From positions 32,001 to 96,000 of the forward strand of contig JAVRCJ020000026.1 in NCBI GenBank assembly GCA_034530875.2: DNA of 64,000 nt, in the 5' to 3' direction. The notes under the pieces were generated by a model. That model was not told where the DNA came from, did not search any database, and worked only from the letters and a program-made list of their open reading frames with translations. The first letter of the stretch is position 1, and each line of letters starts with the position of its first letter. This document shows, one piece after another, positions 28,883 through 41,803 of the stretch. The translations under genes and the position numbers were made by a program. The stretch is from Nostoc sp. DedSLP01. Its GTDB lineage: Bacteria; Cyanobacteriota; Cyanobacteriia; Cyanobacteriales; Nostocaceae.

Positions 28883-31378
28883 ATGTTACGACTTCTCTTG
28901 ATTGATGACAATCCGAACGATCGCCTTTTAGCAATTCGGCAATTAGAACGCGAGTTTTCTGACCTCCAAGTAGAACAAGTTGCCACAGCACAAGACTTTG
29001 CTCGAGCATTGGAGAGAGGAGAATTTAACTTGGTTGTCACCGATTATCAATTGCGCTGGAGTAATGGCATAGAAGTACTCCACGCAATTAAAGCTAGTTA
29101 TCCTAACTGTCCAACGATCATGTTTACCAACAGCGGTACTCAAGAAATTGCTGTGGAGGCAATGAAATCTGGATTGGATGACTACGTGATCAAATCTCCT
29201 CAGCACCAGGTACGCTTAACAGTAGCAGTGCGATCGGCACTAGAACGAGCTGAAGCTCGCCAAAAAGCCGCAAATTTAGAAATTCGCTTTCAAACTTTGC
29301 TCAACAACTTAAATGTTGGCATTTATCGGGCAACTTTCGACGGTTCTTTATTGGAATGCAACCCAGCATTTCTACGTTTGATTGGGTTGGGAAGTTTACC
29401 TCAAGAACAAGCAAGTAGGTTCATAGAGCTTTATTTTCAGCCAGACGATTATACTCAGCTAATTAACCAACTGCGAGAAAATGGTGAAGTGCGCGACCAA
29501 GAAATCCAATTGCGCCGAGTTGATGGAAGTTTGATTTGGGTGCGCGTGAGTAAAACCTTCACTAAAATTGATGGCAACGCTATCATCGATGGCTTGGTAG
29601 AAGATATTAGCGATCGCAAACGAGTAGAGTTAGAACGAGAGCAATTACTCATCAGCGAACAAGCTGCCCGTATGGAAGCTGAGGCAGAAAAGCAAAATTA
29701 CAGTTTGCTATCTGAAGCTAGCCGCTTGTTGGTATCTTCCCTCGATTACCGCATAAATCTGACAAAATTAGCAAACTTGATAGTTCCGACTTTAGCTGAT
29801 TGCTGTCTCATTGATATTGTTGACGCTAATTTAACAGTATTTGAAGAACCAGTTGTTGCAGCAACTACTCCTGAAAAAGAAGCATTAGCCCTCGTACTCA
29901 GAAGATTTTATTCCACCTCATCTGAGGCTGATTTTGGTGTGAGAAAGGTTTTACTTACAGGAGAACCAGAATTAGTTACTGATGCGACAGCGGATTCTTC
30001 TTTATTAGCGATGAAGCAGGATGCAGAAACCCAACGGTTGATGCGCCAGATCGATATCCAATCCTATATAATTGTGCCGCTAGTCGTCGGCGATGCCTAC
30101 GGTGGGCTGCGTTTACGCAAGCTAGGTACGATTACTCTCATTAGCACCCAACATAACCGTCGCTACAATCATCAGAATTTAAATATGGCTCAAGCCCTGG
30201 CTCAGCGGGCAGCCATAGCAATTGAAAATGCTCGGCTTTACCAGCAAGCAATAGATGCAAATCGCATTAAAGATGAGTTTCTCGCGGTTCTCTCTCACGA
30301 AATCAGAACTCCTTTAAATCCGATTTTGGGTTGGGCAAAACTTCTGCGTACCAACAAGCTAAATCCACAAAAGACTGCTTTAGCTTTGGAAACTATAGAA
30401 CGTAATGCAAAGTTACAAACTAGACTCATTGAAGACTTGTTAGATATCTCCCGCATCTTGCGAGGTAAACTCAGTCTCAATATTTGCCCAGTTGATTTGG
30501 CAACCATTATTCGAGCCGCGATGGAAACAGTACGGTTGTCAGCAGAAGCGAAATTGATTCAAATTAGCTCCAATCTCGATCCTAGTGTTGGTCAAGTGTT
30601 TGGCGATGCAGGGCGCTTGCAACAAATCGTCTGGAATCTCATCTCCAACGCGATTAAATTTACCCCTGAAGGCGGGAAAGTAGAGATTTATTTAGAACAA
30701 ATCGATTCTCAAGTTCAAATTAGAGTTAGAGATACAGGTAAAGGAATCAACCCAAATTTTCTGCCATTCGTGTTTGAAACCTTCCGCCAAGCTGATAGTG
30801 CAACCACTAGAAAATTTGGTGGCTTAGGTTTGGGATTAGCAATTGTCCGTTATTTAGTAGAAATGCATGGTGGAACTGTCTTTGCAGAAAGTTTAGGTGA
30901 AAATCAGGGAGCAACCTTTGTTGTCAAGTTGCCGATGATACTTACTGATGCAGTTGACTCTGGCAAAGAAAGCGATGTAATAGCTACTGATACTTCAGCT
31001 TTTAAAGATTTGAAAATCGTAGTTGTAGATGACGATCCTGATTCCCTAGAGTTAATTACCTTCCTACTCGAACAATATGGAGCCACTGTCACCGCGGTGT
31101 CATCAGCAACAGAAGTACTGGAAATTGTGCCAAAGTCGCAACCAGATTTACTCGTCAGCGATATCGGAATGCCAGAAATGGACGGCTATATGTTAATTAG
31201 ACATATTAGGTCAATGGGTCGCGAACAAGGAGGAGAAATTTTAGCGATCGCTCTCACAGCGTATGCTGGAGAAACTAACGAACAGCAAGCGATTGAAGCA
31301 GGTTTCCAAGCTCATATTAGCAAGCCAATAGATCCAGCGCAGTTAATCGAAACCATTGCTGGCTTAATGTCAAAATAA
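28883..31378 (+). CDS. Hybrid histidine kinase (REC-PAS-GAF-HisKA-HATPase-REC)
   Basis: N-terminal REC (LIDDNPND, VVTDYQL), H-box LSHEIRTPL, N-box NLISNAIKFT, GGLGLGL, C-terminal REC (VSDIGMPEMDG, HISKP). Confidence 0.93.
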   Translation: MLRLLLIDDNPNDRLLAIRQLEREFSDLQVEQVATAQDFARALERGEFNLVVTDYQLRWSNGIEVLHAIKASYPNCPTIMFTNSGTQEIAVEAMKSGLDDYVIKSPQHQVRLTVAVRSALERAEARQKAANLEIRFQTLLNNLNVGIYRATFDGSLLECNPAFLRLIGLGSLPQEQASRFIELYFQPDDYTQLINQLRENGEVRDQEIQLRRVDGSLIWVRVSKTFTKIDGNAIIDGLVEDISDRKRVELEREQLLISEQAARMEAEAEKQNYSLLSEASRLLVSSLDYRINLTKLANLIVPTLADCCLIDIVDANLTVFEEPVVAATTPEKEALALVLRRFYSTSSEADFGVRKVLLTGEPELVTDATADSSLLAMKQDAETQRLMRQIDIQSYIIVPLVVGDAYGGLRLRKLGTITLISTQHNRRYNHQNLNMAQALAQRAAIAIENARLYQQAIDANRIKDEFLAVLSHEIRTPLNPILGWAKLLRTNKLNPQKTALALETIERNAKLQTRLIEDLLDISRILRGKLSLNICPVDLATIIRAAMETVRLSAEAKLIQISSNLDPSVGQVFGDAGRLQQIVWNLISNAIKFTPEGGKVEIYLEQIDSQVQIRVRDTGKGINPNFLPFVFETFRQADSATTRKFGGLGLGLAIVRYLVEMHGGTVFAESLGENQGATFVVKLPMILTDAVDSGKESDVIATDTSAFKDLKIVVVDDDPDSLELITFLLEQYGATVTAVSSATEVLEIVPKSQPDLLVSDIGMPEMDGYMLIRHIRSMGREQGGEILAIALTAYAGETNEQQAIEAGFQAHISKPIDPAQLIETIAGLMSK

Positions 31379-31408
31379 TTTCTAGTTAATGACACCAGCA
31401 GGTAACCA

Positions 31409-32659
31409 ATGCAGAGTAGAAATCATTCCTGGCAAAAAAGCTACGGTATTGCTGTACTCTTCAGTGGTTTGGCAGTATTATTTTCTCTACTTGTATCGCC
31501 ATTCATAGAAAATATTACTTTTTCAGTATTTTTTGCAGCCGTGGTGCTGAGTTCGTGGTATGGAAATCGCGGCTCGGGTTTATTCGCAACCCTGTTATGT
31601 AGTTTAGCGATCGCTTACTTTTTTCTTTGGCCAACTTATTCAGTGAGTATTGTAACGCTGGATGCGTTTATTCGTTTGGGATTATTTGCCATCGTATCGG
31701 TACTCAGTAGTGAATTGAATGCTGCTTGGAGACGCACAGAGTTAAAGCTGCGAGAAAGTGAAACTCGCTATCGTGAAATGGCAGAGGCGGTACAGAAGTA
31801 TGCCAACGAACTAGAGCAACGAGTCAGCGACAGGACAGCCGCCCTAGTGGAAGCCAACAAAGAACTAGAAACCTTTGGCTATTCAGTCTCCCATGACTTA
31901 CGCGCTCCATTGCGGGCAATGCAAGGTTTAGCTGAAGCCCTACAGGAAGATTATAGCGATCGATTAGACAGCCAAGGTCAAGACTATATTCAAAGGATTG
32001 TCGCCTCTGCCGAACGGATGGATAGGCTAATTCAAGACCTACTTGAATACTCGCGCCTGAGCCAGTTAGAAATTAACCTGCACGTAGTTAATCTGGCAGA
32101 GATTGTGACAGAAGCGATTAAGCAACTAGAAGTAGAATCGCGATCGCCAAAGGCGGGGCGTAGCCCATCGCAACAAGCTCAAGTCAGCGTAGAGCAACCG
32201 CTTCCAGAAGTTATAGGTAATCGGATAATTTTAATACAAGTACTCGTAAACTTACTCAGTAATGCAATCAAATTTGTTCCAGCGAACAGCCAACCCCAAA
32301 TTCGTATATGGGCAGAAATCCCAGGAGTAGAGAGAGATGGGAAGGTAGGGGAGACAAGGGGACAAGAGGACAAGGGGACAATGAAAATAACTCATAACTC
32401 CTCACTCCTAACTCCTAACTCAACAATTCGCCTCTGGATAGAAGATAACGGTATTGGCATTGCAGCAGAACATCAGCAGCGAATTTTCAACGTATTTGAA
32501 AGATTGCACAGCGAAGATACTTATCCTGGTTCTGGCATTGGCTTGGCAATTGTGCGAAAAGGTGTTGAACGTATGGGGGGACAGGTCGGTGTAGAGTCAA
32601 TAGTAGGTCAAGGTAGCCGCTTTTGGATTGAATTACAAAAATTTGCGATCGACACATGA
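31409..32659 (+). CDS. Membrane-bound histidine kinase (DUF4118/KdpD-like TM sensor)
   Basis: N-terminal TM helices (FFAAVVLSSWYG), H-box SVSHDLRAPLR, NLLSNAIKF, YPGSGIGL. Confidence 0.9.
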   Translation: MQSRNHSWQKSYGIAVLFSGLAVLFSLLVSPFIENITFSVFFAAVVLSSWYGNRGSGLFATLLCSLAIAYFFLWPTYSVSIVTLDAFIRLGLFAIVSVLSSELNAAWRRTELKLRESETRYREMAEAVQKYANELEQRVSDRTAALVEANKELETFGYSVSHDLRAPLRAMQGLAEALQEDYSDRLDSQGQDYIQRIVASAERMDRLIQDLLEYSRLSQLEINLHVVNLAEIVTEAIKQLEVESRSPKAGRSPSQQAQVSVEQPLPEVIGNRIILIQVLVNLLSNAIKFVPANSQPQIRIWAEIPGVERDGKVGETRGQEDKGTMKITHNSSLLTPNSTIRLWIEDNGIGIAAEHQQRIFNVFERLHSEDTYPGSGIGLAIVRKGVERMGGQVGVESIVGQGSRFWIELQKFAIDT

Positions 32660-33108
32660 ACACAGAGCAGCAGACAATCTTACTCGCAGAAGACGACCCC
32701 AATCAAGTCCTATTAATTCGTCGTGCTTTACGCAAAGCTAATCTCATACAACCGCTACAAGTCGTCAGCAACGGAGAAGCCGCTATTTCTTACCTCTGTG
32801 GTGAAGGAGAATATGCCGACCGAGAACGCTATCCTCTACCGATGCTAGTTTTGTTAGACCTGAAAATGCCGCGCAAATCTGGATTTGAGGTTTTGGAGTG
32901 GCTCAAGCAACAACCCCAGCTCAAACGCCTGCCGGTTATTGTACTGACAACTTCTAAGGAAATAGCCGACGTTGATAAAGCTTATGACTTGGGTGTTAAT
33001 TCTTATCTAGTTAAACCAGTTGCATTTAGTGACTTGACAGCAATGATAAAGTTGCTTGATGCCTACTGGCTGAATTTAAATCAACAATCCTTGCTTTACT
33101 TCAGTTAG
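32656..33108 (+). CDS. Single-domain response regulator (Rcp1-like)
   Basis: LLAEDDPN, LLDLKMPRKSG, LTTS, NSYLVKP. ATGA overlap with the upstream kinase. Confidence 0.92.
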   Translation: MNTEQQTILLAEDDPNQVLLIRRALRKANLIQPLQVVSNGEAAISYLCGEGEYADRERYPLPMLVLLDLKMPRKSGFEVLEWLKQQPQLKRLPVIVLTTSKEIADVDKAYDLGVNSYLVKPVAFSDLTAMIKLLDAYWLNLNQQSLLYFS

Positions 33109-33426
33109 ATAGGTTGATTTGCTCAAAGATTGCAATCCCGCTTACTAAAAGAGTGGGAATGCCAATAATGGTTTAGCCTAGAAAAGGCATCATTAAGTAA
33201 TTCGTAATGGGCTACGCCACGCTACGCTAACGTAATTCATGAAGAAATTCTCTGGGTTTAGCCATTGTGTTTTAGGGGGAAAGCGCAATGCACGTATGTG
33301 TCAAATTAACCTAAAATTGACATCCAGCAAAAAACTGAAAAATACTACAAAATTTCTATATTAAATTGACTTTCCTAATTAAAGATTCTGCACTTATAGC
33401 TTTTTAAGCATTAATTTTGGCTTCTC

Positions 33427-35412
33427 ATGCACATTCTGATTATTGACGACAATCCAAATGACCGATTCATGATTATTCGGGAAATGCGACGGGAATTTCC
33501 TGATGTAGAAATAGAAGAAGTGGGCGAACCAGAAGACTTTGAACGAGCGCTGGCAGCAGCTAGCTTTGACCTGACAATTACCGATTATCAACTCCGTTGG
33601 TCTAATGGTTTAGACATATTACATCTTCTCAAAAACCGTTACCCCGATCGCCCGGTGATTATGTTTACCAACACAGGCAATCAAGAAATAGCTGTCGAGG
33701 CCATGAAAAGCGGACTCGATGATTACATCCTCAAGTCACCAAGGCATCTAGTTCGTTTGTCCGCAACAGTGAGATCTGTTTTAGAACGTAACGAAACTCG
33801 TCTGAGAGCTAGCTTTTTAGAGAATCGGCTCCAATCTTTACTCAATCAATTAAATGTTGGGGTATTTCGAGCAATTCCCGATGGACGTATATTAGAAGCG
33901 AACAGTGCATTTCTCAACCTTTTGAGACTTGATTCTCTAGAAGAAATTCAGTCTAATATTAGCTTTAATGAGATTTTTTCTCGAGCCGGAGATATTACAC
34001 CACACAAAAGACGAGAACGGGAATTAAAGATACGTAGGAAAGATGGTAGTTATATATGGATATCAGTAAATGAAACTCTCAATGTTACTAATGGAGAAGA
34101 GTTAATTGATGGGCTAGTGGAAGACATCACCGGGCGCAAACGCTCAGAAGAAGCACTGAAACGTTATGCAACAAGATTACAAACTCTCCAAGAGTTAGAT
34201 CGGTCGATTTTGGGGGCGATTTCTCCCAAAGGAATTGCCCAAGCAGCTTTAACTGCGACTTATCCTTTACTTCCCTGTCAATTAATGGATGTGACATTGT
34301 TTGATTTGGAACAGCAACAAGCCACTGTCTTGGCTGTTCAGTCTAATGATGGTATTGGCTTTTCTGTCGGTGAAACTTTATCATTACATGATTTTGGCAA
34401 CATTGAAAACTTGCAACAAAATCAGGTGATGATGATTGAAAACCTGGGCGAACATCCCAGACCCTATCGCGTTCAACAACAGCTGTTTGACCAAGGCATT
34501 CGTTTAATTATGAATGTGCCTGTAATTGCCCAACAACAGCTAATCGGTTCTTTGAATGTGGGAGTAATTCAACCGTGGTCGTTAACTGAGGAAGATGTGG
34601 AAATTGCCCGTGAAGTGGCAAATCAATTAGCGATCGCCATTCAACAATCTCGCTTGCGCGAACAATTGCACCGCTACACCGAACAACTCGAACAACTAGT
34701 CCACAACCGCACGCAACAGCTTGAAGAAGCCAATAGTGCCTTAGAAGCCTTTGCCTACTCCATCTCCCACGACTTACAAGAACCTCTGCGTGCGATTCGG
34801 GGATTTGCCACAATTCTTTTAGAAGATTACGATACTGTATTGAATTCAGCCGGGCAAGATTTACTCCATCGCATCGCTAATAACGTCGAGCGTATGGACA
34901 ACTTACTGCTAGATTTATTAGAGTACAGCCGCTTGAGCCGGATTGATTTACCGCTACAACCAATTAATCTCAATTCCCTAATCAAGCAAGTGCTGAACCA
35001 ATTAGAAGTATCGCTGCAACAAAAGCAAGCACAAGTGACAATTGCCGAACCTCTTTTGGAAGTTGTGGGAAACTACCGCACCGTCGAGCAAATTGTCACA
35101 AATCTAGTAACCAACGCCATCAAATTTGTCGCCTCTGGAGTTCAACCCCAAGTCAGAATCTGGACAGAACGCCGCGAACATTGCGTCCGTTTGTGGGTAG
35201 AAGACAACGGCATAGGCATCTCACAGCAGCACTGGGAGAGGATTTTTGGTGTTTTCGAGCGTTTACACAGCATTGAAGCTTATCCTGGCACAGGAATCGG
35301 GCTAGCGATCGTCCGTAAAGGCGTTGAACGTCTGGGCGGACAAGTAGGTATGGAGTCAGAAGTCTCTCAAGGTAGTCGTTTTTGGATAGAACTACGGGAA
35401 TATGTTAAATGA
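33427..35412 (+). CDS. Hybrid histidine kinase (REC-PAS-GAF-HisKA-HATPase)
   Basis: REC paralogous to the one at 28883; H-box SISHDLQEPLR; NLVTNAIKF; YPGTGIGL. Confidence 0.92.
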   Translation: MHILIIDDNPNDRFMIIREMRREFPDVEIEEVGEPEDFERALAAASFDLTITDYQLRWSNGLDILHLLKNRYPDRPVIMFTNTGNQEIAVEAMKSGLDDYILKSPRHLVRLSATVRSVLERNETRLRASFLENRLQSLLNQLNVGVFRAIPDGRILEANSAFLNLLRLDSLEEIQSNISFNEIFSRAGDITPHKRRERELKIRRKDGSYIWISVNETLNVTNGEELIDGLVEDITGRKRSEEALKRYATRLQTLQELDRSILGAISPKGIAQAALTATYPLLPCQLMDVTLFDLEQQQATVLAVQSNDGIGFSVGETLSLHDFGNIENLQQNQVMMIENLGEHPRPYRVQQQLFDQGIRLIMNVPVIAQQQLIGSLNVGVIQPWSLTEEDVEIAREVANQLAIAIQQSRLREQLHRYTEQLEQLVHNRTQQLEEANSALEAFAYSISHDLQEPLRAIRGFATILLEDYDTVLNSAGQDLLHRIANNVERMDNLLLDLLEYSRLSRIDLPLQPINLNSLIKQVLNQLEVSLQQKQAQVTIAEPLLEVVGNYRTVEQIVTNLVTNAIKFVASGVQPQVRIWTERREHCVRLWVEDNGIGISQQHWERIFGVFERLHSIEAYPGTGIGLAIVRKGVERLGGQVGMESEVSQGSRFWIELREYVK

Positions 35413-35660: not shown

Positions 35661-36494
35661 TTAACTACTCTCCTGCTGTTCTAGTAAAACTACTAAATCA
35701 GATATTTGAGAAAACTCTACAAATTCCTCTCCTAATACTTCCAATTGTTCGGTAGACAATCCTCGAATACGTTCAATTATCGACGAATCTATTTCACCAA
35801 ACCGCCTTCTTAATTGACGCATTAAAAACCGAAAGGCTTCTTGTTGTTGCCCCTTCTGTAAAATATCTTGATAAATTACCGACTCTTGCATCACATCTTC
35901 CCTTAAAAATTGACGAATCAATTCTTTTTCAAACTTTAAACCAGCCAAAATTTCTGCGTAAGCTGCAATATCCTGTCTAGTATTCCTATCGGGAATTCTA
36001 GCAACACTCTGTGCAACCTGGGATAGCAACCTTTGGGCTGAGGTTGTTCTTGTTAATGGTGCTAAAGGTAATAATGCAGGGTTATCAAGAAATAGTGCTG
36101 ATTATTGTTCCCACATCCGCAGGACTCGATAACGATGAGTTGTTGTCTCATTTACATATTCTTCAGTAAAAGCAATTTCGTTATTTGTTTCTTGTAAAAA
36201 AATTACAACCTGGGTGACTGGGACGTTGTATTGACGTATTAACCTCACGGAGTAATCCAGCATGCTGAATGGAAGCGGCGGATTTGAGATGGTACGAGTT
36301 TGAAATTCGATGTGTAAAATTCGATTGGCTGTTTGCAGAAAAGTTACACAATCCGCACGGATTGGTTCTAAACTCAATTCGGTCTTAAGCACCTTAACTT
36401 TTGTCGGTGCTTGACCCAGTAACCAACTAACAAATTCTCTTGGATATTTTTCAGCTAATACCTTACAAACGTTGTCAAAACTCACAATTTCCAC
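35661..36494 (-). pseudogene. Rpn-family recombination-promoting nuclease/putative transposase (DUF4351 C-terminus) with one nonsense codon
   Basis: FDNVCKVLAEKYP, EPIRAD, ILHIEFQT and C-terminal QLRRRFGEI..LSTEQLEVLGE. Both ORF pieces share one frame, separated only by TAA at 36102-36104 (MWEQ*SALFLDNPALLPLAPL). Confidence 0.88.
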
Positions 36495-36675: not shown

Positions 36676-36906
36676 TTTGATATTCGCCGATGAATCTTTG
36701 ATATTCGCCGACGAGTCTTTAATACTCGCCGACGAGTCTTTGATATTCGCCGACGAGTCTTTAATACTCGCCGACGAGTCTTTAATACTCGCCGACGAGT
36801 CTTTGATATTCGCCGACGAGTCTTTGATACTCGCGAACGAGTCTTTAATACTCGCGAACGAGTCTTTGATACTCGCGAACGAGTCTTTGATACTCGCGAA
36901 CGAGTA
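36676..36906. repeat. Tandem array of 11 x 21-bp units
   Basis: Unit TTT(G/A)ATA(T/C)TCGC(CG/GA)ACGAGTC repeated head-to-tail with no spacers. Confidence 0.95.
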
Positions 36907-36964: not shown

Positions 36965-37882
36965 CTACTTAGATAAACGCGTCATTTCAAACAATTGCTG
37001 GGCATTACTTCCTAAAAAAGCATCAAAAAGTACTTGCTTTCCAGGTTCTACTTCCACTAGATACCGCTGGGCAATTTCATAATAAGCGTAAGTCCAAGGA
37101 ATCTGAATTTCTAAACCACTGTTATCATCTAATACTGTTACCATTTCCGTTACTGCTTGAGTTGCCGTTTGACGCAAACCACAAGCAACATTTCCCTCTA
37201 TCTCTGCTTTCATTGGTACGCCTAAGTTAGCCAAACTACTGGCGGTAGTGTCTATATCTGGATATTTTGCGGTGTTCTGGCCGTTAACGTAGCCTGTGAA
37301 ATGGTTGACAGCATATCCGTGCAGCAATACCCAAGCACCATACTGAGTAACCTGATTCACCTCTTCGACAACAGAACGCCTGGGAGGTAACCAAGGACGG
37401 GTAAATATTTGTTGGAGTTGTTGGGCAATGGTTTGAATGTTTTCTTCTGTTTCTGGAAGAGAATTAATAGGTGGAGTGAATTTATAGTCAATTGAAGATA
37501 CTGTTTGAGAAATGATTTGAGCAATATTGCTAGGTAATTCATCAACAATTAACTCGCTAATAAATAGTTTGGGTAAGTTAAATTCCTCTTGTTGCGGATG
37601 ATGATAATGACGGGCATAAAGATGAGTTTTTGCAAAAGTATACTCTCCAGCTGGGATATAACCTAAAGCTTGTACAATTTTTTCGAGGTAACCAATGCCG
37701 AGGTTAATTTGACCTTGTGGGCTATCTATTAATAGGCGCAGAGACCGAAAGGCGATGTGGTCGTTGGCGACGTTTCCACCCGCAGCGGTAATCATTTGCT
37801 GGTAGGTACGGGCATGATTTACTCTGGCGCTGTATTGTTGCCAGAGTAGTTTCCAGAGATGGAGGGCTATTTCGGGTTTCAT
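36965..37882 (-). CDS. DUF1338 family protein (2-oxoadipate dioxygenase/decarboxylase, HglS-like)
   Basis: NDHIAFRS, LPKLFISEL, YGAWVLLHGYAVNHFT, LRQTAT, YYEIAQR (His/His/Glu metal triad plus Arg). ATG 37882 preferred because GTG 37909 lies inside a repeat. Confidence 0.82.
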   Translation of the reverse strand: MKPEIALHLWKLLWQQYSARVNHARTYQQMITAAGGNVANDHIAFRSLRLLIDSPQGQINLGIGYLEKIVQALGYIPAGEYTFAKTHLYARHYHHPQQEEFNLPKLFISELIVDELPSNIAQIISQTVSSIDYKFTPPINSLPETEENIQTIAQQLQQIFTRPWLPPRRSVVEEVNQVTQYGAWVLLHGYAVNHFTGYVNGQNTAKYPDIDTTASSLANLGVPMKAEIEGNVACGLRQTATQAVTEMVTVLDDNSGLEIQIPWTYAYYEIAQRYLVEVEPGKQVLFDAFLGSNAQQLFEMTRLSK

Positions 37883-37946
37883 AAGGTTGATGGGGATGAT
37901 TTTTTTCACGCAGAGTCGCAGAGGCGCGGAGAGTTTTTGCGTGGGG

Positions 37947-39260
37947 TTACAATATATTTGAGAGAATTTGGAGGGCGGTGTGGATTTGGTCGCTGTCGAT
38001 AACTAGAGGCGGACAAAAACGAATTGCGGCTTTGCCACAACCGAGTAATAATAAACCTCGTAAGAAGGATTCTTGGATAATGCGATCGCGCAATTTCTTA
38101 TCAAGATTGCCTTGTTCATCCAATAAGTCCACCGCAACCATTAAACCTTTACCTCGTGGTGGCGATATTCTAGGAAATTTGTAATGTAATTCGCTAAGTC
38201 CAGTTTGTAATAATTCTCCCATTTGGGTAGCGTTGGTCATTAAACCGCCCTCTAGGAGTTCTAGAGTGGCAATACCAGCGGCACAAGCTACGGGATTACC
38301 GCCGAATGTGGTAGCGTGAGAACCAGGAGGCCAAGTCATTAACTCTGGTCTAGCAAGTATTGCTCCTAAGGGCAGACCGCTGGCGATACCTTTGGCGGTA
38401 GTAATAATATCAGGCATGACTCCCCAATGCTCGATCGCAAATAATCTACCTGTGCGCCCCATTCCGGCTTGTACTTCATCCACCACCATTAAAATACCGT
38501 GGCGATCGCAAATTTCCCGAATCCGTTTTAAAAAGCCATCTTCTGGTACGATATACCCGCCTTCCCCTTGAATCGGTTCGACTACAATTGCTGCTACTTC
38601 TTGCGGTGGTAAAGTTGTCGTAAATAGCTGTTCTTCTAAGTAATCTAAGCTGGCATGAGTCCCATAAGGAATATGAGTTACCCCAGGAACTAAAGGGCCA
38701 AAATTGGCTCGCTGCACTACTTTGGAACCAGTCAGAGACATTGCGCCATAAGTGCGTCCGTGGAATGCGCCTAAAAATGCCACGATGAGCGATCGCTTGG
38801 TGTAATATCGAGCTAATTTAATCGCTCCTTCGTTAGACTCTGCCCCGGAATTGGTAAAAAATACTTTGGCAGGAAATCCCGCGTTATCCTGTGGCTGCGG
38901 AAACGGGGCGCGAACAGCCAATTTTTCTGCTAATTCCACCATCGGTTCGTAATAAAAATCCGTCCCCGACATGTGTAGCAAACGCGCCGACTGTTCTTGA
39001 ATTGCCTTGACGACTTCCGGGTGGGCGTGTCCCGTGGCGGTGACGGCAATACCTGCGGTCATATCGAGAAACACATTGCCGTCAACATCTTCCACCATAC
39101 AGCCCTCGCCACGAGCCACAACTAAAGGATAATCGCGGGTATAAGAAGGAGAGGTGACAGTGCGATCGCGCTGTATAATTTCTTGAGCGCGAGTTCCAGG
39201 CAAAGAAGTTATTAAGCGCGGTGTCCGAGGTAAATTTAAGTTAACAGGAATACTTAACAT
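37947..39260 (-). CDS. Class III PLP-dependent aminotransferase (acetylornithine/4-aminobutyrate/lysine-6 type)
   Basis: DVDGNVFLD, NSGAESNE, AFHGRT, VEPIQGEGGY, DEVQAGMGRTG, TAKGIASG. Confidence 0.93.
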   Translation of the reverse strand: MLSIPVNLNLPRTPRLITSLPGTRAQEIIQRDRTVTSPSYTRDYPLVVARGEGCMVEDVDGNVFLDMTAGIAVTATGHAHPEVVKAIQEQSARLLHMSGTDFYYEPMVELAEKLAVRAPFPQPQDNAGFPAKVFFTNSGAESNEGAIKLARYYTKRSLIVAFLGAFHGRTYGAMSLTGSKVVQRANFGPLVPGVTHIPYGTHASLDYLEEQLFTTTLPPQEVAAIVVEPIQGEGGYIVPEDGFLKRIREICDRHGILMVVDEVQAGMGRTGRLFAIEHWGVMPDIITTAKGIASGLPLGAILARPELMTWPPGSHATTFGGNPVACAAGIATLELLEGGLMTNATQMGELLQTGLSELHYKFPRISPPRGKGLMVAVDLLDEQGNLDKKLRDRIIQESFLRGLLLLGCGKAAIRFCPPLVIDSDQIHTALQILSNIL

Positions 39261-39482
39261 AGTTTTTTAGAATTACTAATAGTTGAGGTAATTCGTAATT
39301 CGTAATTAAAAATTCTGTTGGAGTCTGTAACCTCTACAGGTTGACTCATTATGTTTGGGTCTAAATCCCCATACATACGGTAATTAGAATTCCCATAGGG
39401 AAACTTAGAACAACAAACCAATTGAATTGCCCCTACTTAAATAAACTGCTCTGTCCCTCAATTACGAATTACGAATTACGAA

Positions 39483-40985
39483 TTACGAATTATTCCTATT
39501 GTCTATTTGGGCGCGTTGCAGACTTCCGGAAAAGTCAACATAAACGCTTTTCCATTCTGTGAATACATCTAAAGCAGTGATGCCAGCTTCGCGGTGTCCG
39601 TTGCCGGTTTGTTTGACGCCACCAAAAGGCAAGTGTACTTCTGCACCAATGGTAGGGCCGTTAATATAAGTGATACCTGCTTCGATGTCGCGCATAGCAG
39701 TAAAAGCGCGGTTGATATCGCGGGTATAAACTGAAGAAGAAAGACCGTAATTGGTATCATTGACAATGGCGATCGCTTCTTCAAAAGAACTCACCTCAAT
39801 CAATACCACCACCGGGCCGAATATCTCTTCACGGGCAACCCGCATGTTGGGAGTTACCTCATCCAAAATAGTCGGTTGAAAGAAGTAACCATTTTTTAAT
39901 TCCCCAGCAGATGCGATTTCCCCACCAATTAAAACTTTTGCTCCTTCCTCGCGGGCAATATCTAAATATTTGCTTACCTGTAGGAGTTGCTTTTCATTGA
40001 TTATCGGCCCGATATCTGTATCTGGGTCATTACCAGCACCCAAGCGTAATTTACTGGCACGCTCGTAAAGCATAGCAGTAAATTTTTCTTTAATATCGCG
40101 ATGCAAAATTAGCCGACTCGTAGCCGTACAGCGTTGACCGGTTGTGCCAAAAGCACCCCACACCGCACCATCTAAAGCCAGTTCTAAATCGGCATCTTCC
40201 ATTACCACTTGAGCGTTTTTGCCGCCCATTTCCAAACAAACGCGCTTGTGAGTGCGCCCGCAAGTCTCGCCCACAAAAGCACCGGTTTGGGAAGAACCAG
40301 TAAAGGACACCAAATCAACATCAGCATGTTCGACTAAAGCTTTTCCTACCTCTTCCCCCACACCATGCACCAGGTTAATTACTCCTGGCGGTAAACCTGC
40401 TTGTTGAAAAATTTCAATTAATTTAGTTGCACAGGCAGATGTATCTTCAGCAGGTTTGAGAATGACTGTATTACCACACACCAAGGCTGGCATAGCTTTC
40501 CAGCAAGGAATTGCCACTGGGAAATTCCAAGGGGTAATTAAGGCGCAAACACCAATGGGCATTCGTACCGTCATCGCAAATTTATTGGGCATTTCCGAGG
40601 GTGTGGTTTGCCCAAAAAGTCGCCGTCCTTCACCAGCACTATAAAAAGCGCAGTCAATACCTTCTTGCACATCTCCCCTAGCTTCTGTCAGGGGTTTACC
40701 CATTTCTCGGCTGATTAACTGGGCTAGTTCTTCTTTGTGTTCGAGTAATATTTCGCCTACACGAAAAATGTATTCTGCCCTAGCTGGGGCTGGGACTTTG
40801 CGCCAACTTTGGTAGGCTTTGCGGGCGGCGGCTACGGCTGTATCTACATCCTGGGCTTGGGAACGGGGAAATGTAGCAACGAGTTCGTTTTTGTCAGCAG
40901 GGTTACGGCTTTCAAGAATCGCTTCCCCTACAGCGGTCACCCATTGACCGTCTATGAAATTGCGGCAAGATAGCGGAGTTATCAT
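39483..40985 (-). CDS. NAD(P)-dependent aldehyde dehydrogenase
   Basis: ITPWNFP, SFTGS, LEMGGKN, catalytic GQRCTA, EEIFGPV. ATG 40985 lies 8 nt after GGAGG. Confidence 0.95.
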   Translation of the reverse strand: MITPLSCRNFIDGQWVTAVGEAILESRNPADKNELVATFPRSQAQDVDTAVAAARKAYQSWRKVPAPARAEYIFRVGEILLEHKEELAQLISREMGKPLTEARGDVQEGIDCAFYSAGEGRRLFGQTTPSEMPNKFAMTVRMPIGVCALITPWNFPVAIPCWKAMPALVCGNTVILKPAEDTSACATKLIEIFQQAGLPPGVINLVHGVGEEVGKALVEHADVDLVSFTGSSQTGAFVGETCGRTHKRVCLEMGGKNAQVVMEDADLELALDGAVWGAFGTTGQRCTATSRLILHRDIKEKFTAMLYERASKLRLGAGNDPDTDIGPIINEKQLLQVSKYLDIAREEGAKVLIGGEIASAGELKNGYFFQPTILDEVTPNMRVAREEIFGPVVVLIEVSSFEEAIAIVNDTNYGLSSSVYTRDINRAFTAMRDIEAGITYINGPTIGAEVHLPFGGVKQTGNGHREAGITALDVFTEWKSVYVDFSGSLQRAQIDNRNNS

Positions 40986-41080
40986 CACAAACACCTCCGA
41001 CTGATAATTCAGTGGATTTTGTGTACTAAGTGTGCTTGCTTTCTACGTTATCGTCAAGTCAGGAGTCAGAATTCTTCCCC

Positions 41081-41803
41081 CTAAGGTACGAACGCCAAAA
41101 CCCCCACAGGAGAACCGGAACCACCACGCAACCTCAGAATTCCAATCGCTAAAGTAGTACCTTTAGGTGGCAACCGATCCAAATTAGTCAGATTCTCTAA
41201 TACAATACGCGGTTGTTCTAATATCAAGCGGTTAGTAGCAAAGGTGGTATCTTGTCCTGGGTCTACGCCATGAGTATCAATTCCTACCCCAGCAATTTGC
41301 CGCTGCTCGAGTAAAAATTGGGTGGCATCTTTACTAAACCCTGGAAAGTGGCTAATTCCTTCTGCATCTTGATTGAAGAACGCATTTTTATCAGACCACT
41401 TTTTTTGCCAACCCGTATTCAGTATAACTACTGAACCAGCAGCAATTTCACCGTGTTGTTCTTCCCAAGCTAAAACATCAGCGATCGCCAGGGCATAATC
41501 AAAGTTAGCTTTGACGGCTTGACGAATATCTATAACTACCGCAGGTACAACTAAAGACTGGGCTGGATACTGGTCAATTCCGATACTATGACTATAAAAA
41601 CTATTAGGCGCGTTAATATGGGTGGCGCTATGTTCCCCCAAGGAAAAACGCCGCAGGTAGTAGCCATCGTTGTTCGATTCAGCTACAGTTTCAAATTCTA
41701 CTGGTGGGTCACCAGGCCATTGGGGAATATCCAAGTCAATAACATGACTTAAGTGGATAACACGCCTATAGGTGATACTCTTTTGACTTTCGGGTTGTAT
41801 CAT
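41081..41803 (-). CDS. Cyclase (kynurenine formamidase-like) family protein
   Basis: HLSH..WPGDP, EHSATHINAP, HFPG, GIDTHGVD, LENL, GSGSPV. Confidence 0.88.
   Translation of the reverse strand: MIQPESQKSITYRRVIHLSHVIDLDIPQWPGDPPVEFETVAESNNDGYYLRRFSLGEHSATHINAPNSFYSHSIGIDQYPAQSLVVPAVVIDIRQAVKANFDYALAIADVLAWEEQHGEIAAGSVVILNTGWQKKWSDKNAFFNQDAEGISHFPGFSKDATQFLLEQRQIAGVGIDTHGVDPGQDTTFATNRLILEQPRIVLENLTNLDRLPPKGTTLAIGILRLRGGSGSPVGVLAFVP

Follow-up and report, generated by a model that had tools for sequence, protein, structure and literature searches.

A stretch of 64,000 nucleotides of Nostoc sp. DedSLP01 (contig JAVRCJ020000026.1, positions 32,001 to 96,000; the window) carries three neighbouring genes, for an aldehyde dehydrogenase (ALDH), a class III aminotransferase and a DUF1338 protein of the HglS type. 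They raise the question of whether a cyanobacterium can degrade lysine through 2-oxoadipate to D-2-hydroxyglutarate (D-2-HG), as was proposed in an initial annotation made from the sequence. The three genes are a real, conserved and co-inherited module. The module is probably lysine-catabolic, leading from lysine through the semialdehyde, aminoadipate and oxoadipate to D-2-HG. Three lines of evidence support the proposal: active-site residues of the HglS protein and the ALDH, the joint presence and absence of the genes among genomes, and the exchange of genes in related loci. The substrates and the direction of flux are predicted.

The three genes, in window coordinates, are:

39483..40994 (ATG at 40985), minus strand: ALDH, intact open reading frame (ORF) of 500-503 amino acids; predicted aminoadipate-semialdehyde or piperideine-6-carboxylate (P6C) dehydrogenase of an ALDH7-related subfamily
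37947..39260, minus strand: class III pyridoxal phosphate (PLP) omega-aminotransferase of 437 amino acids, family PRK05769; predicted lysine epsilon-aminotransferase
36965..37909 (likely start ATG 37882), minus strand: predicted DUF1338/HglS 2-oxoadipate dioxygenase/decarboxylase of 305-314 amino acids

The co-oriented arrangement described in the initial annotation is correct: all three are intact minus-strand ORFs with the Pfam families PF00171 (ALDH, 595 bits), PF00202 (aminotransferase, 404 bits) and PF07063 (DUF1338, 89.5 bits against a gathering cut-off of 25). The start at 37882 is preferred for the DUF1338 gene because the alignments of its relatives begin there. The ALDH and aminotransferase genes are separated by 222 nt and the aminotransferase and DUF1338 genes by 37-64 nt.

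In the proposed route the aminotransferase would move the epsilon-amino group of lysine onto 2-oxoglutarate, and the ALDH would oxidize the resulting semialdehyde, or P6C, to 2-aminoadipate. The next conversion, of 2-aminoadipate to 2-oxoadipate, would fall to a class I housekeeping aminotransferase or again to the class III enzyme, and the DUF1338 protein would convert 2-oxoadipate to D-2-HG and CO2 with Fe(II) and O2. Both nitrogens of lysine would be recovered as glutamate.

The DUF1338 protein

The best supported step of the route is the one catalysed by the DUF1338 protein, which is predicted from its residues and its structural model to be an Fe(II)/O2-dependent enzyme forming D-2-HG from 2-oxoadipate. 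Alignment with solved homologues places the His-His-Glu metal triad at H51, H203 and E278. The arginine of 2-oxoadipate specificity is R55, four residues past the first His, and equals R74 of HglS and R64 of FLO7. The motifs DHIAFR, NHFT and YEIAQR, in which a His/His/Glu site had been suspected, are present and hold H51 with R55, H203 and E278, respectively; DHIAFR aligns with DHFAFR of rice FLO7. An alignment of 137 sequences shows no variation at D50, H51 and R55, and at least 90% conservation at H203 and E278. HglS was active on 2-oxoadipate alone among seven 2-oxoacids, with no activity on 2-oxoglutarate, its R74A variant was inactive, and the homologues from E. coli, Arabidopsis and rice catalyse the same reaction (Thompson 2020, 10.1101/2020.01.30.927905).

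The predicted model of the Nostoc protein (pLDDT 93.9) has rice hydroxyglutarate synthase (6w1k) as its top fold match, with a Z score of 31.6 and a root-mean-square deviation of 2.6 over 276 residues. Five other DUF1338 entries gave Z scores of 21-30, with 22.0 for P. putida HglS (6w1h), and the next family (HMS/HPPD) did not exceed 13.9, so that the predicted fold is that of a VOC-type HglS. The gene is single copy in the genome. Its closest named relatives are found in Nostoc linckia and other Nostoc (90-92%), and for ten distant relatives the cluster look-up gave only the name 'hypothetical protein'.

Co-inheritance of the three genes

Orthologues were sought with protein queries in 301 genomes drawn across the phylum Cyanobacteriota, with identity thresholds of at least 60% for HglS, at least 80% for the aminotransferase and at least 72% for the ALDH. 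The counts rest on this census because one based on Pfam families missed the HglS of one genome (G035), which is 74% identical. HglS was found in 17 genomes, the aminotransferase in 16 and the ALDH in 18; the 16 with the aminotransferase hold intact copies of the whole trio. Sub-threshold matches alone were seen for HglS in one further genome (G029, 31% identity) and for the ALDH in 22 further genomes (41-50%). The aminotransferase gene adjoins that of HglS in 14 of the 16 trio genomes, and the ALDH gene lies within 10 kb of the aminotransferase in four. Two genomes (G251 and G035) have kept all three genes though these are unlinked, and one genome of the same genus (G217) lacks all three. The ALDH co-occurs with HglS in 17 of its 18 genomes, unlinked cases included.

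As a control the same count was made for a gene adjacent to the trio:

41081-41803: cyclase-family gene, 86 nt upstream of the ALDH ORF

It is present in 46 of the 301 genomes, 30 of which have no intact trio. On these counts it was rejected as a fourth member of the module, and it looks like part of a separate pathway. A cyclase-family gene often precedes the ALDH gene, and in some relatives it is fused to an acyl-CoA-dehydrogenase N-terminal domain (L105:4053-5879, L112:3339-5153).

Gene order and substitution of genes in related loci

The synteny survey called for in the initial annotation was carried out, and both the linkage of aminotransferase and HglS and the order of the trio recur in distant loci. 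The metagenome scan was run with a 13-row HglS alignment; 80 metagenome loci were analysed. Among Nostoc-type loci with flanks of sufficient length, 72 of 77 have the aminotransferase gene at most 1.2 kb upstream of HglS, and 10 of 68 have a directly adjacent ALDH gene. The corresponding figures for metagenome loci with an HglS of at least 50% identity, divergent loci of 54-61% identity among them, are 38 of 50 and 11 of 37. The trio thus goes beyond chance, given the proximity of aminotransferase and HglS in 72/77 and 38/50 loci, and the three-gene order looks old and often broken.

In 14 of the 80 metagenome loci HglS has an identity of 38-47%. Nine of these carry, beside HglS, a gene of about 365 amino acids of the saccharopine dehydrogenase family, and four carry the PRK05769 aminotransferase family instead. 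In the remaining locus neither is visible, and the two were not seen together in any. The only solved relatives of the 365-residue protein are 3abi (the best) and 3ic5, which makes it lysine-6-dehydrogenase-like; 3ABI is a lysine 6-dehydrogenase (PMC10413350). On the longer contigs there follow a true P6C dehydrogenase and an FAD-linked D-2-HG-dehydrogenase-like gene. Two of the loci (L211 and L212) have the order P6C dehydrogenase (passing NF050084), PRK05769 aminotransferase and HglS, as in the Nostoc window. These swaps suggest that the aminotransferase fills the slot of lysine epsilon-deamination and the ALDH the slot of the P6C dehydrogenase. Nothing else speaks as strongly for lysine rather than ornithine as the substrate, and for transamination at the epsilon rather than the alpha position, as this occupancy of the slots. 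In the Nostoc genome no match to the locus-linked lysine-dehydrogenase-like proteins was found.

The aminotransferase

The aminotransferase passes the PRK05769 model NF004426 (648.8 against a cut-off of 552), the sole pass among the 25 models listed. It stays below the cut-offs of TIGR00700 (GABA; 360/507), TIGR00707 (ArgD; 382/410), TIGR01885 (RocD-type; 281/378) and NF049976, the model of the 2-aminoadipate transaminase PP_4108 (289.7 against 650). It was thus found to belong to PRK05769 and not to the textbook class III lysine 6-aminotransferase family implied earlier. Its best match in the PDB is an archaeal enzyme (7vno, E 5e-110), which we take to be the ornithine/lysine omega-transaminase PH1423 of Pyrococcus horikoshii. 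K290, R169, E233, R414, T100 and D101 are present, and both the catalytic residues and the GTD loop are conserved. T100 and D101 align with T92 and D93 of 7vno; the Asp is retained in all close orthologues listed, whereas the GabT-like and ArgD rows differ. The Thr-Asp loop presumably binds the alpha-amino group of the substrate. From these sequence features the protein is predicted to be a lysine epsilon-aminotransferase.

Of the archaeal enzymes, PH1423 is tabulated with L/D-Orn and L/D-Lys as substrates and TK2101 with L-Orn and L-Lys, the acceptor of the latter being 2-oxoglutarate or 2-oxoadipate (PMC9986279); PH1423 is reported to lack racemase activity (PMC6047364). The other class III enzymes of the Nostoc genome are ArgD (C12), a diaminobutyrate (DABA) transaminase and, by sequence, a HemL-like protein. 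By elimination among these, alr1080 of Anabaena would be the orthologue of the window enzyme. In the accessible text of three sources alr1080 is listed, without a test, as an ornithine or acetylornithine transaminase (PMC2242806, PMC4234267, PMC4390845).

Another setting of the family is seen in Deinococcus radiodurans (NZ_OV024759.1), where a KamA-family radical SAM gene, DUF4274, a PRK05769 aminotransferase and a pyrroline-5-carboxylate (P5C)-type dehydrogenase stand in a run (L144:3975-9003), possibly a beta-lysine catabolic operon.

The aldehyde dehydrogenase

None of the 25 NCBIfam models listed is passed by the ALDH, its scores in bits against the cut-offs being 556/770 for GucD, 399/730 for P6C dehydrogenase (NF050084) and 431/648 for P5C dehydrogenase (NF002852). 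True P6C dehydrogenases of related loci score 741-801 on NF050084. The protein is therefore below the ALDH7/P6C dehydrogenase cut-off, and its assignment to the textbook aminoadipate-semialdehyde dehydrogenase family did not hold. The best PDB match is 6fjx (E 7e-127). In a tree of 26 rows the four P6C dehydrogenase rows form a clade of their own (100/100) with the window ALDH outside it, in a wider group (90/94) with GucD-like rows, and apart from P5C dehydrogenase and PutA.

The residues give a different picture. With numbering fixed on an alignment to 4x0t, bridged through a true P6C dehydrogenase, E111, F158, W165, R288, C289, T290, G450, A451 and F457 correspond to E121, F168, W175, R301, C302, T303, G461, A462 and F468 of ALDH7A1. 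All eight residues of ALDH7A1 that bind aminoadipate (E121, F168, W175, R301, T303, G461, A462 and F468; list in PMC11362210) are kept, as is the C-terminal AQ motif. Of the same set, one to five are found in the six other ALDHs of the genome, four in the Deinococcus P5C dehydrogenase and five in a GucD-like protein. The catalytic loop reads R-C-T and not K-C-S as in P5C dehydrogenases, so that the protein does not qualify as a P5C/glutamate-semialdehyde dehydrogenase. Ala462 versus Ser has been proposed as a discriminator of C6 and C5 substrates (PMC13162559), and it was given no weight here because the bacterial P5C dehydrogenases compared also have Ala. Judged by its residues the ALDH would work like ALDH7, yet it is not a member of ALDH7.

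Members of the same subfamily, and another ALDH with the same residues, were met in other surroundings. On two Deinococcus plasmids such an ALDH adjoins DUF1338. In three genomes of the phylum of about 2 Mb (G114, G148 and G136; L132-L134) it adjoins a PRK08117-like aminotransferase with no DUF1338, and the two of these ALDHs that were checked have 8/8 of the aminoadipate-binding residues. On a Bacillus cereus plasmid (NZ_CP070340.1, L141:6624-9497) a GabT-like transaminase and an 8/8-residue ALDH close a cluster of nonribosomal peptide synthetase (NRPS) and fatty-acid synthase genes, to which the pair may supply an aminoadipate-like building block.

The aminoadipate step and the fate of D-2-HG

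The transaminase for aminoadipate and the dehydrogenase for 2-hydroxyglutarate had been placed outside the window. This stands as far as the window is concerned, and the genome search found no dedicated D-2-HG dehydrogenase anywhere. For the aminoadipate step the genome has 23 PF00155 matches. With probes for class I and class III aminotransferases, four related loci of the lysine-dehydrogenase type (L199, L216, L221 and L223) likewise gave no match, so the straightforward reading is that a housekeeping enzyme encoded elsewhere would carry out this step.

YdiJ, the partner of HglS in P. putida, occurs in 8 of the 301 genomes, none of which has an HglS orthologue. One metagenome locus (L169:7525-10536) has a near-cut-off YdiJ (1294 bits against 1350) 2.6 kb downstream of its trio, and as YdiJ was seen in this locus only and never together with an HglS orthologue in the 301 genomes, YdiJ was rejected as a partner of the module. 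Copies 59-60% identical to that of L169 are found in three genomes without HglS (G068, G153 and G211). The sole PF02913 protein of the Nostoc genome is GlcD; an FAD enzyme (C42), SerA and LhgO are also present. LhgO was rejected as D-2-HG dehydrogenase because it is described as specific for L-2-HG (Thompson 2019, 10.1101/450254), and GlcD-type FAD dehydrogenases and SerA are the candidates for D-2-HG oxidation.

The use of 2-oxoadipate by TK2101 makes a dual role of the aminotransferase chemically plausible. A self-sufficient module can accordingly be imagined, in which one class III enzyme would carry out both transaminations (lysine epsilon and 2-aminoadipate alpha), Nostoc-type cyanobacteria would accumulate or excrete D-2-HG or recycle it through the photorespiratory GlcD, and lysine turnover would feed a carbon/nitrogen signal. 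This fuller version is unlikely. If it were true, D-2-HG would act as a mimic of 2-oxoglutarate, and a physiological function would be assigned to the bacterial PRK05769 enzymes and the 6fjx-like ALDHs, both of them uncharacterised subfamilies.

Evidence against a lysine route and alternative explanations

A number of observations weigh against the lysine route. In the census the aminotransferase gene of one genome with HglS and ALDH (G179) is reduced to a 5' relic of 164 codons (L226:4143-4637), and another genome (G163) has the ALDH alone with no orthologue of the other two. Of the 16 trio genomes 15 belong to one family and are not independent events, for which reason the Fisher value of the association was given no weight. 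Among the loci that show gene swaps, L211 and L212 are probably one organism, the aminotransferases of L159 and L203 are partial and at contig ends, and several of the 14 are short contigs. The characterised relatives of the aminotransferase carry the name of ornithine transaminases, and in D. radiodurans the PRK05769 member has KamA and a P5C-type dehydrogenase as neighbours. With scores below cut-off on both models, the ALDH fits GucD better than P6C dehydrogenase, and the tree draws no line between it and GucD-like rows. The genome search identified no dedicated aminoadipate transaminase, YdiJ was found neither in this genome nor in the 17 that have an HglS orthologue, and the best genome matches of the locus-linked D-2-HG-dehydrogenase-like protein are GlcD and GlcE (27-34%).

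An alternative is that the aminotransferase is only a 2-aminoadipate alpha-transaminase like PP_4108 of P. putida, with lysine deaminated by an enzyme encoded elsewhere and the trio forming three consecutive steps. PP_4108 is a related class III enzyme, as judged from the NF049976 match and its reported activity (Thompson 2019, 10.1101/450254), the aminotransferase gene is the one most tightly linked to HglS, whose substrate it would then make, and a saccharopine-dehydrogenase-like gene exists in the genome (C4). The match of 289.7 bits is, however, far under the cut-off of 650, whereas PRK05769 was passed. In related loci the place of the aminotransferase is held by lysine-6-dehydrogenase-like genes, and the four loci with no aminotransferase match indicate that the aminoadipate step is commonly unlinked. 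The C4 gene is near HglS in just 2 of the 182 loci searched for it and was rejected as the entry step. This alternative is improbable.

The same slot argument bears on ornithine. If the aminotransferase and the ALDH served ornithine/arginine catabolism, from ornithine through glutamate semialdehyde to glutamate, HglS would use 2-oxoadipate from another source. The closest characterised enzymes are ornithine omega-transaminases (PMC9986279), Anabaena alr1080, an orthologue by elimination only, is marked in PMC4234267 as a possible ornithine transaminase, and the PRK05769 member of D. radiodurans neighbours a P5C dehydrogenase. The ALDH, on the other hand, has R288, T290 and W165 where P5C dehydrogenases have K, S and G. 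There is also less need for an ornithine route, as the genome already has a PutA-sized ALDH (C4, 994 amino acids) and an AgrE-type TIGR00300 gene. HglS is inactive on 2-oxoglutarate (10.1101/2020.01.30.927905), and this route would leave unexplained why its distribution follows that of the other two genes. Ornithine is thus a quite improbable substrate of the pathway.

It is very doubtful that the same chemistry acts on a relative of lysine (D-lysine, P6C derived from pipecolate, or modified or damaged lysine) and serves detoxification or salvage instead of the turnover of L-lysine. PH1423 accepts D-Lys (PMC9986279), the P. putida HglS route serves D-lysine (Thompson 2019, 10.1101/450254), a DAO-family oxidase fills the slot in Deinococcus, and the result that no D-2-HG dehydrogenase was found fits removal better than carbon use. 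Against this, the annotated part of the neighbours of the cyanobacterial loci examined showed no conserved gene for a racemase, an oxidase or a transporter.

It is extremely unlikely that the ALDH is a chance neighbour, or that tryptophan is the source of 2-oxoadipate through the kynurenine route, the upstream cyclase being a formamidase: the ALDH is within 10 kb of the aminotransferase in just 4 of 16 genomes and the cyclase has a weak arylformamidase match (53 bits, cut-off 223), but the ALDH tracks HglS in 17 of 18 genomes even where unlinked, the tight three-gene order recurs in distant loci, the cyclase stands in 30 genomes without an intact trio, and the kynurenine origin was rejected because kynureninase and tryptophan dioxygenase were not found in this 99.8% complete genome.

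Sequence surrounding the module

Just 3' of the DUF1338 gene, at 36676-36905, are 11 tandem copies of a 21-bp unit with 92% matches. The array yields a repetitive frame of 94 codons on the plus strand that is probably no gene. Short 7-bp tandem repeats are found in the gap between the ALDH and aminotransferase genes (39288-39307 and 39460-39492), one of them overlapping the 3' end of the ALDH; they appear to us to resemble the heptamer repeats of heterocystous cyanobacteria. Further on, at 35661-36494, two short minus-strand ORFs (130 and 122 amino acids, the second with DUF4351) look like the split halves of one gene. A dense two-component cluster on the plus strand (28883-35412), comprising by sequence two hybrid kinases, a sensor kinase and a response regulator, converges on the enzyme genes.

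Comparison with known systems

The initial annotation held that such a route had not been described in cyanobacteria, which is true in part. The cyanobacterial context of DUF1338 was flagged in section 8 of Thompson 2019 (bioRxiv 10.1101/450254), where the N. punctiforme DUF1338 is named and the neighbouring cyanobacterial ALDH and aminotransferase genes are taken to imply a function like that of PP_5260; the exact order of the trio may already be shown in Figure 4B or the supplements of that paper. A literature search, mostly outside subscription journals, found no experimental description of lysine catabolism via 2-oxoadipate in cyanobacteria, and the available text of PMC10287535, PMC7290344 and 10.1101/2020.06.29.176149 added nothing on this module. 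As the loci had been noted in 2019, the Nostoc trio is a variant of a known route, and with the chemistry also known the surprise is limited.

If the route is confirmed, Nostoc-type cyanobacteria would gain a defined way of recovering lysine nitrogen as glutamate, and the annotations 'acetylornithine/GABA aminotransferase' and generic ALDH would be corrected in many genomes. The first two steps of HglS routes would then be filled by interchangeable families, a lysine 6-dehydrogenase-like protein or a PRK05769 aminotransferase in the first and ALDH7 or a 6fjx-like ALDH in the second.

The D-lysine route of P. putida (AmaB PP_5258, PP_4108, HglS/YdcJ PP_5260 and YdiJ PP_4493; Thompson 2019, 2020) shares with the Nostoc trio a DUF1338 enzyme with the His-His-Glu triad and specificity arginine as well as a semialdehyde dehydrogenase, and intermediates and product are predicted to be identical. 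It is entered by pipecolate oxidation, whereas epsilon-transamination is the predicted entry in Nostoc. The Nostoc ALDH fails the AmaB/P6C dehydrogenase model, no YdiJ or PP_4108-type gene was found, and HglS is of the short form (about 305 amino acids).

In plants the hydroxyglutarate synthase FLO7/AT1G07040 acts with ALDH7. It is the best fold match of the Nostoc HglS and has the same catalytic and specificity residues, but the identity over the structural alignment is 24% and plants enter the pathway via LKR/saccharopine dehydrogenase.

The archaeal enzymes PH1423 and TK2101 share the GTD loop and catalytic residues with the Nostoc aminotransferase. TK2101 is reported to be necessary for growth without proline (Zheng 2018, via PMC9986279), whereas the cyanobacterial enzyme is tied to HglS. 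Compared with ALDH7A1/antiquitin and Pcd/AmaB, the Nostoc ALDH keeps the eight product-binding residues and the AQ motif, yet it is about 35-37% identical to true P6C dehydrogenases and groups with the 6fjx-like subfamily, for which no assigned physiological substrate was found.

A parallel in gene content is given by the Actinobacteria R. opacus and M. tuberculosis, in which a lysine aminotransferase (Lat) stands beside DUF1338 and the same route is implied (Thompson 2019, section 8). The 60 best PDB matches listed for the Nostoc aminotransferase include no Lat structure. By its family, PRK05769, and its closeness to archaeal enzymes, the Nostoc protein would differ from the actinobacterial Lat.

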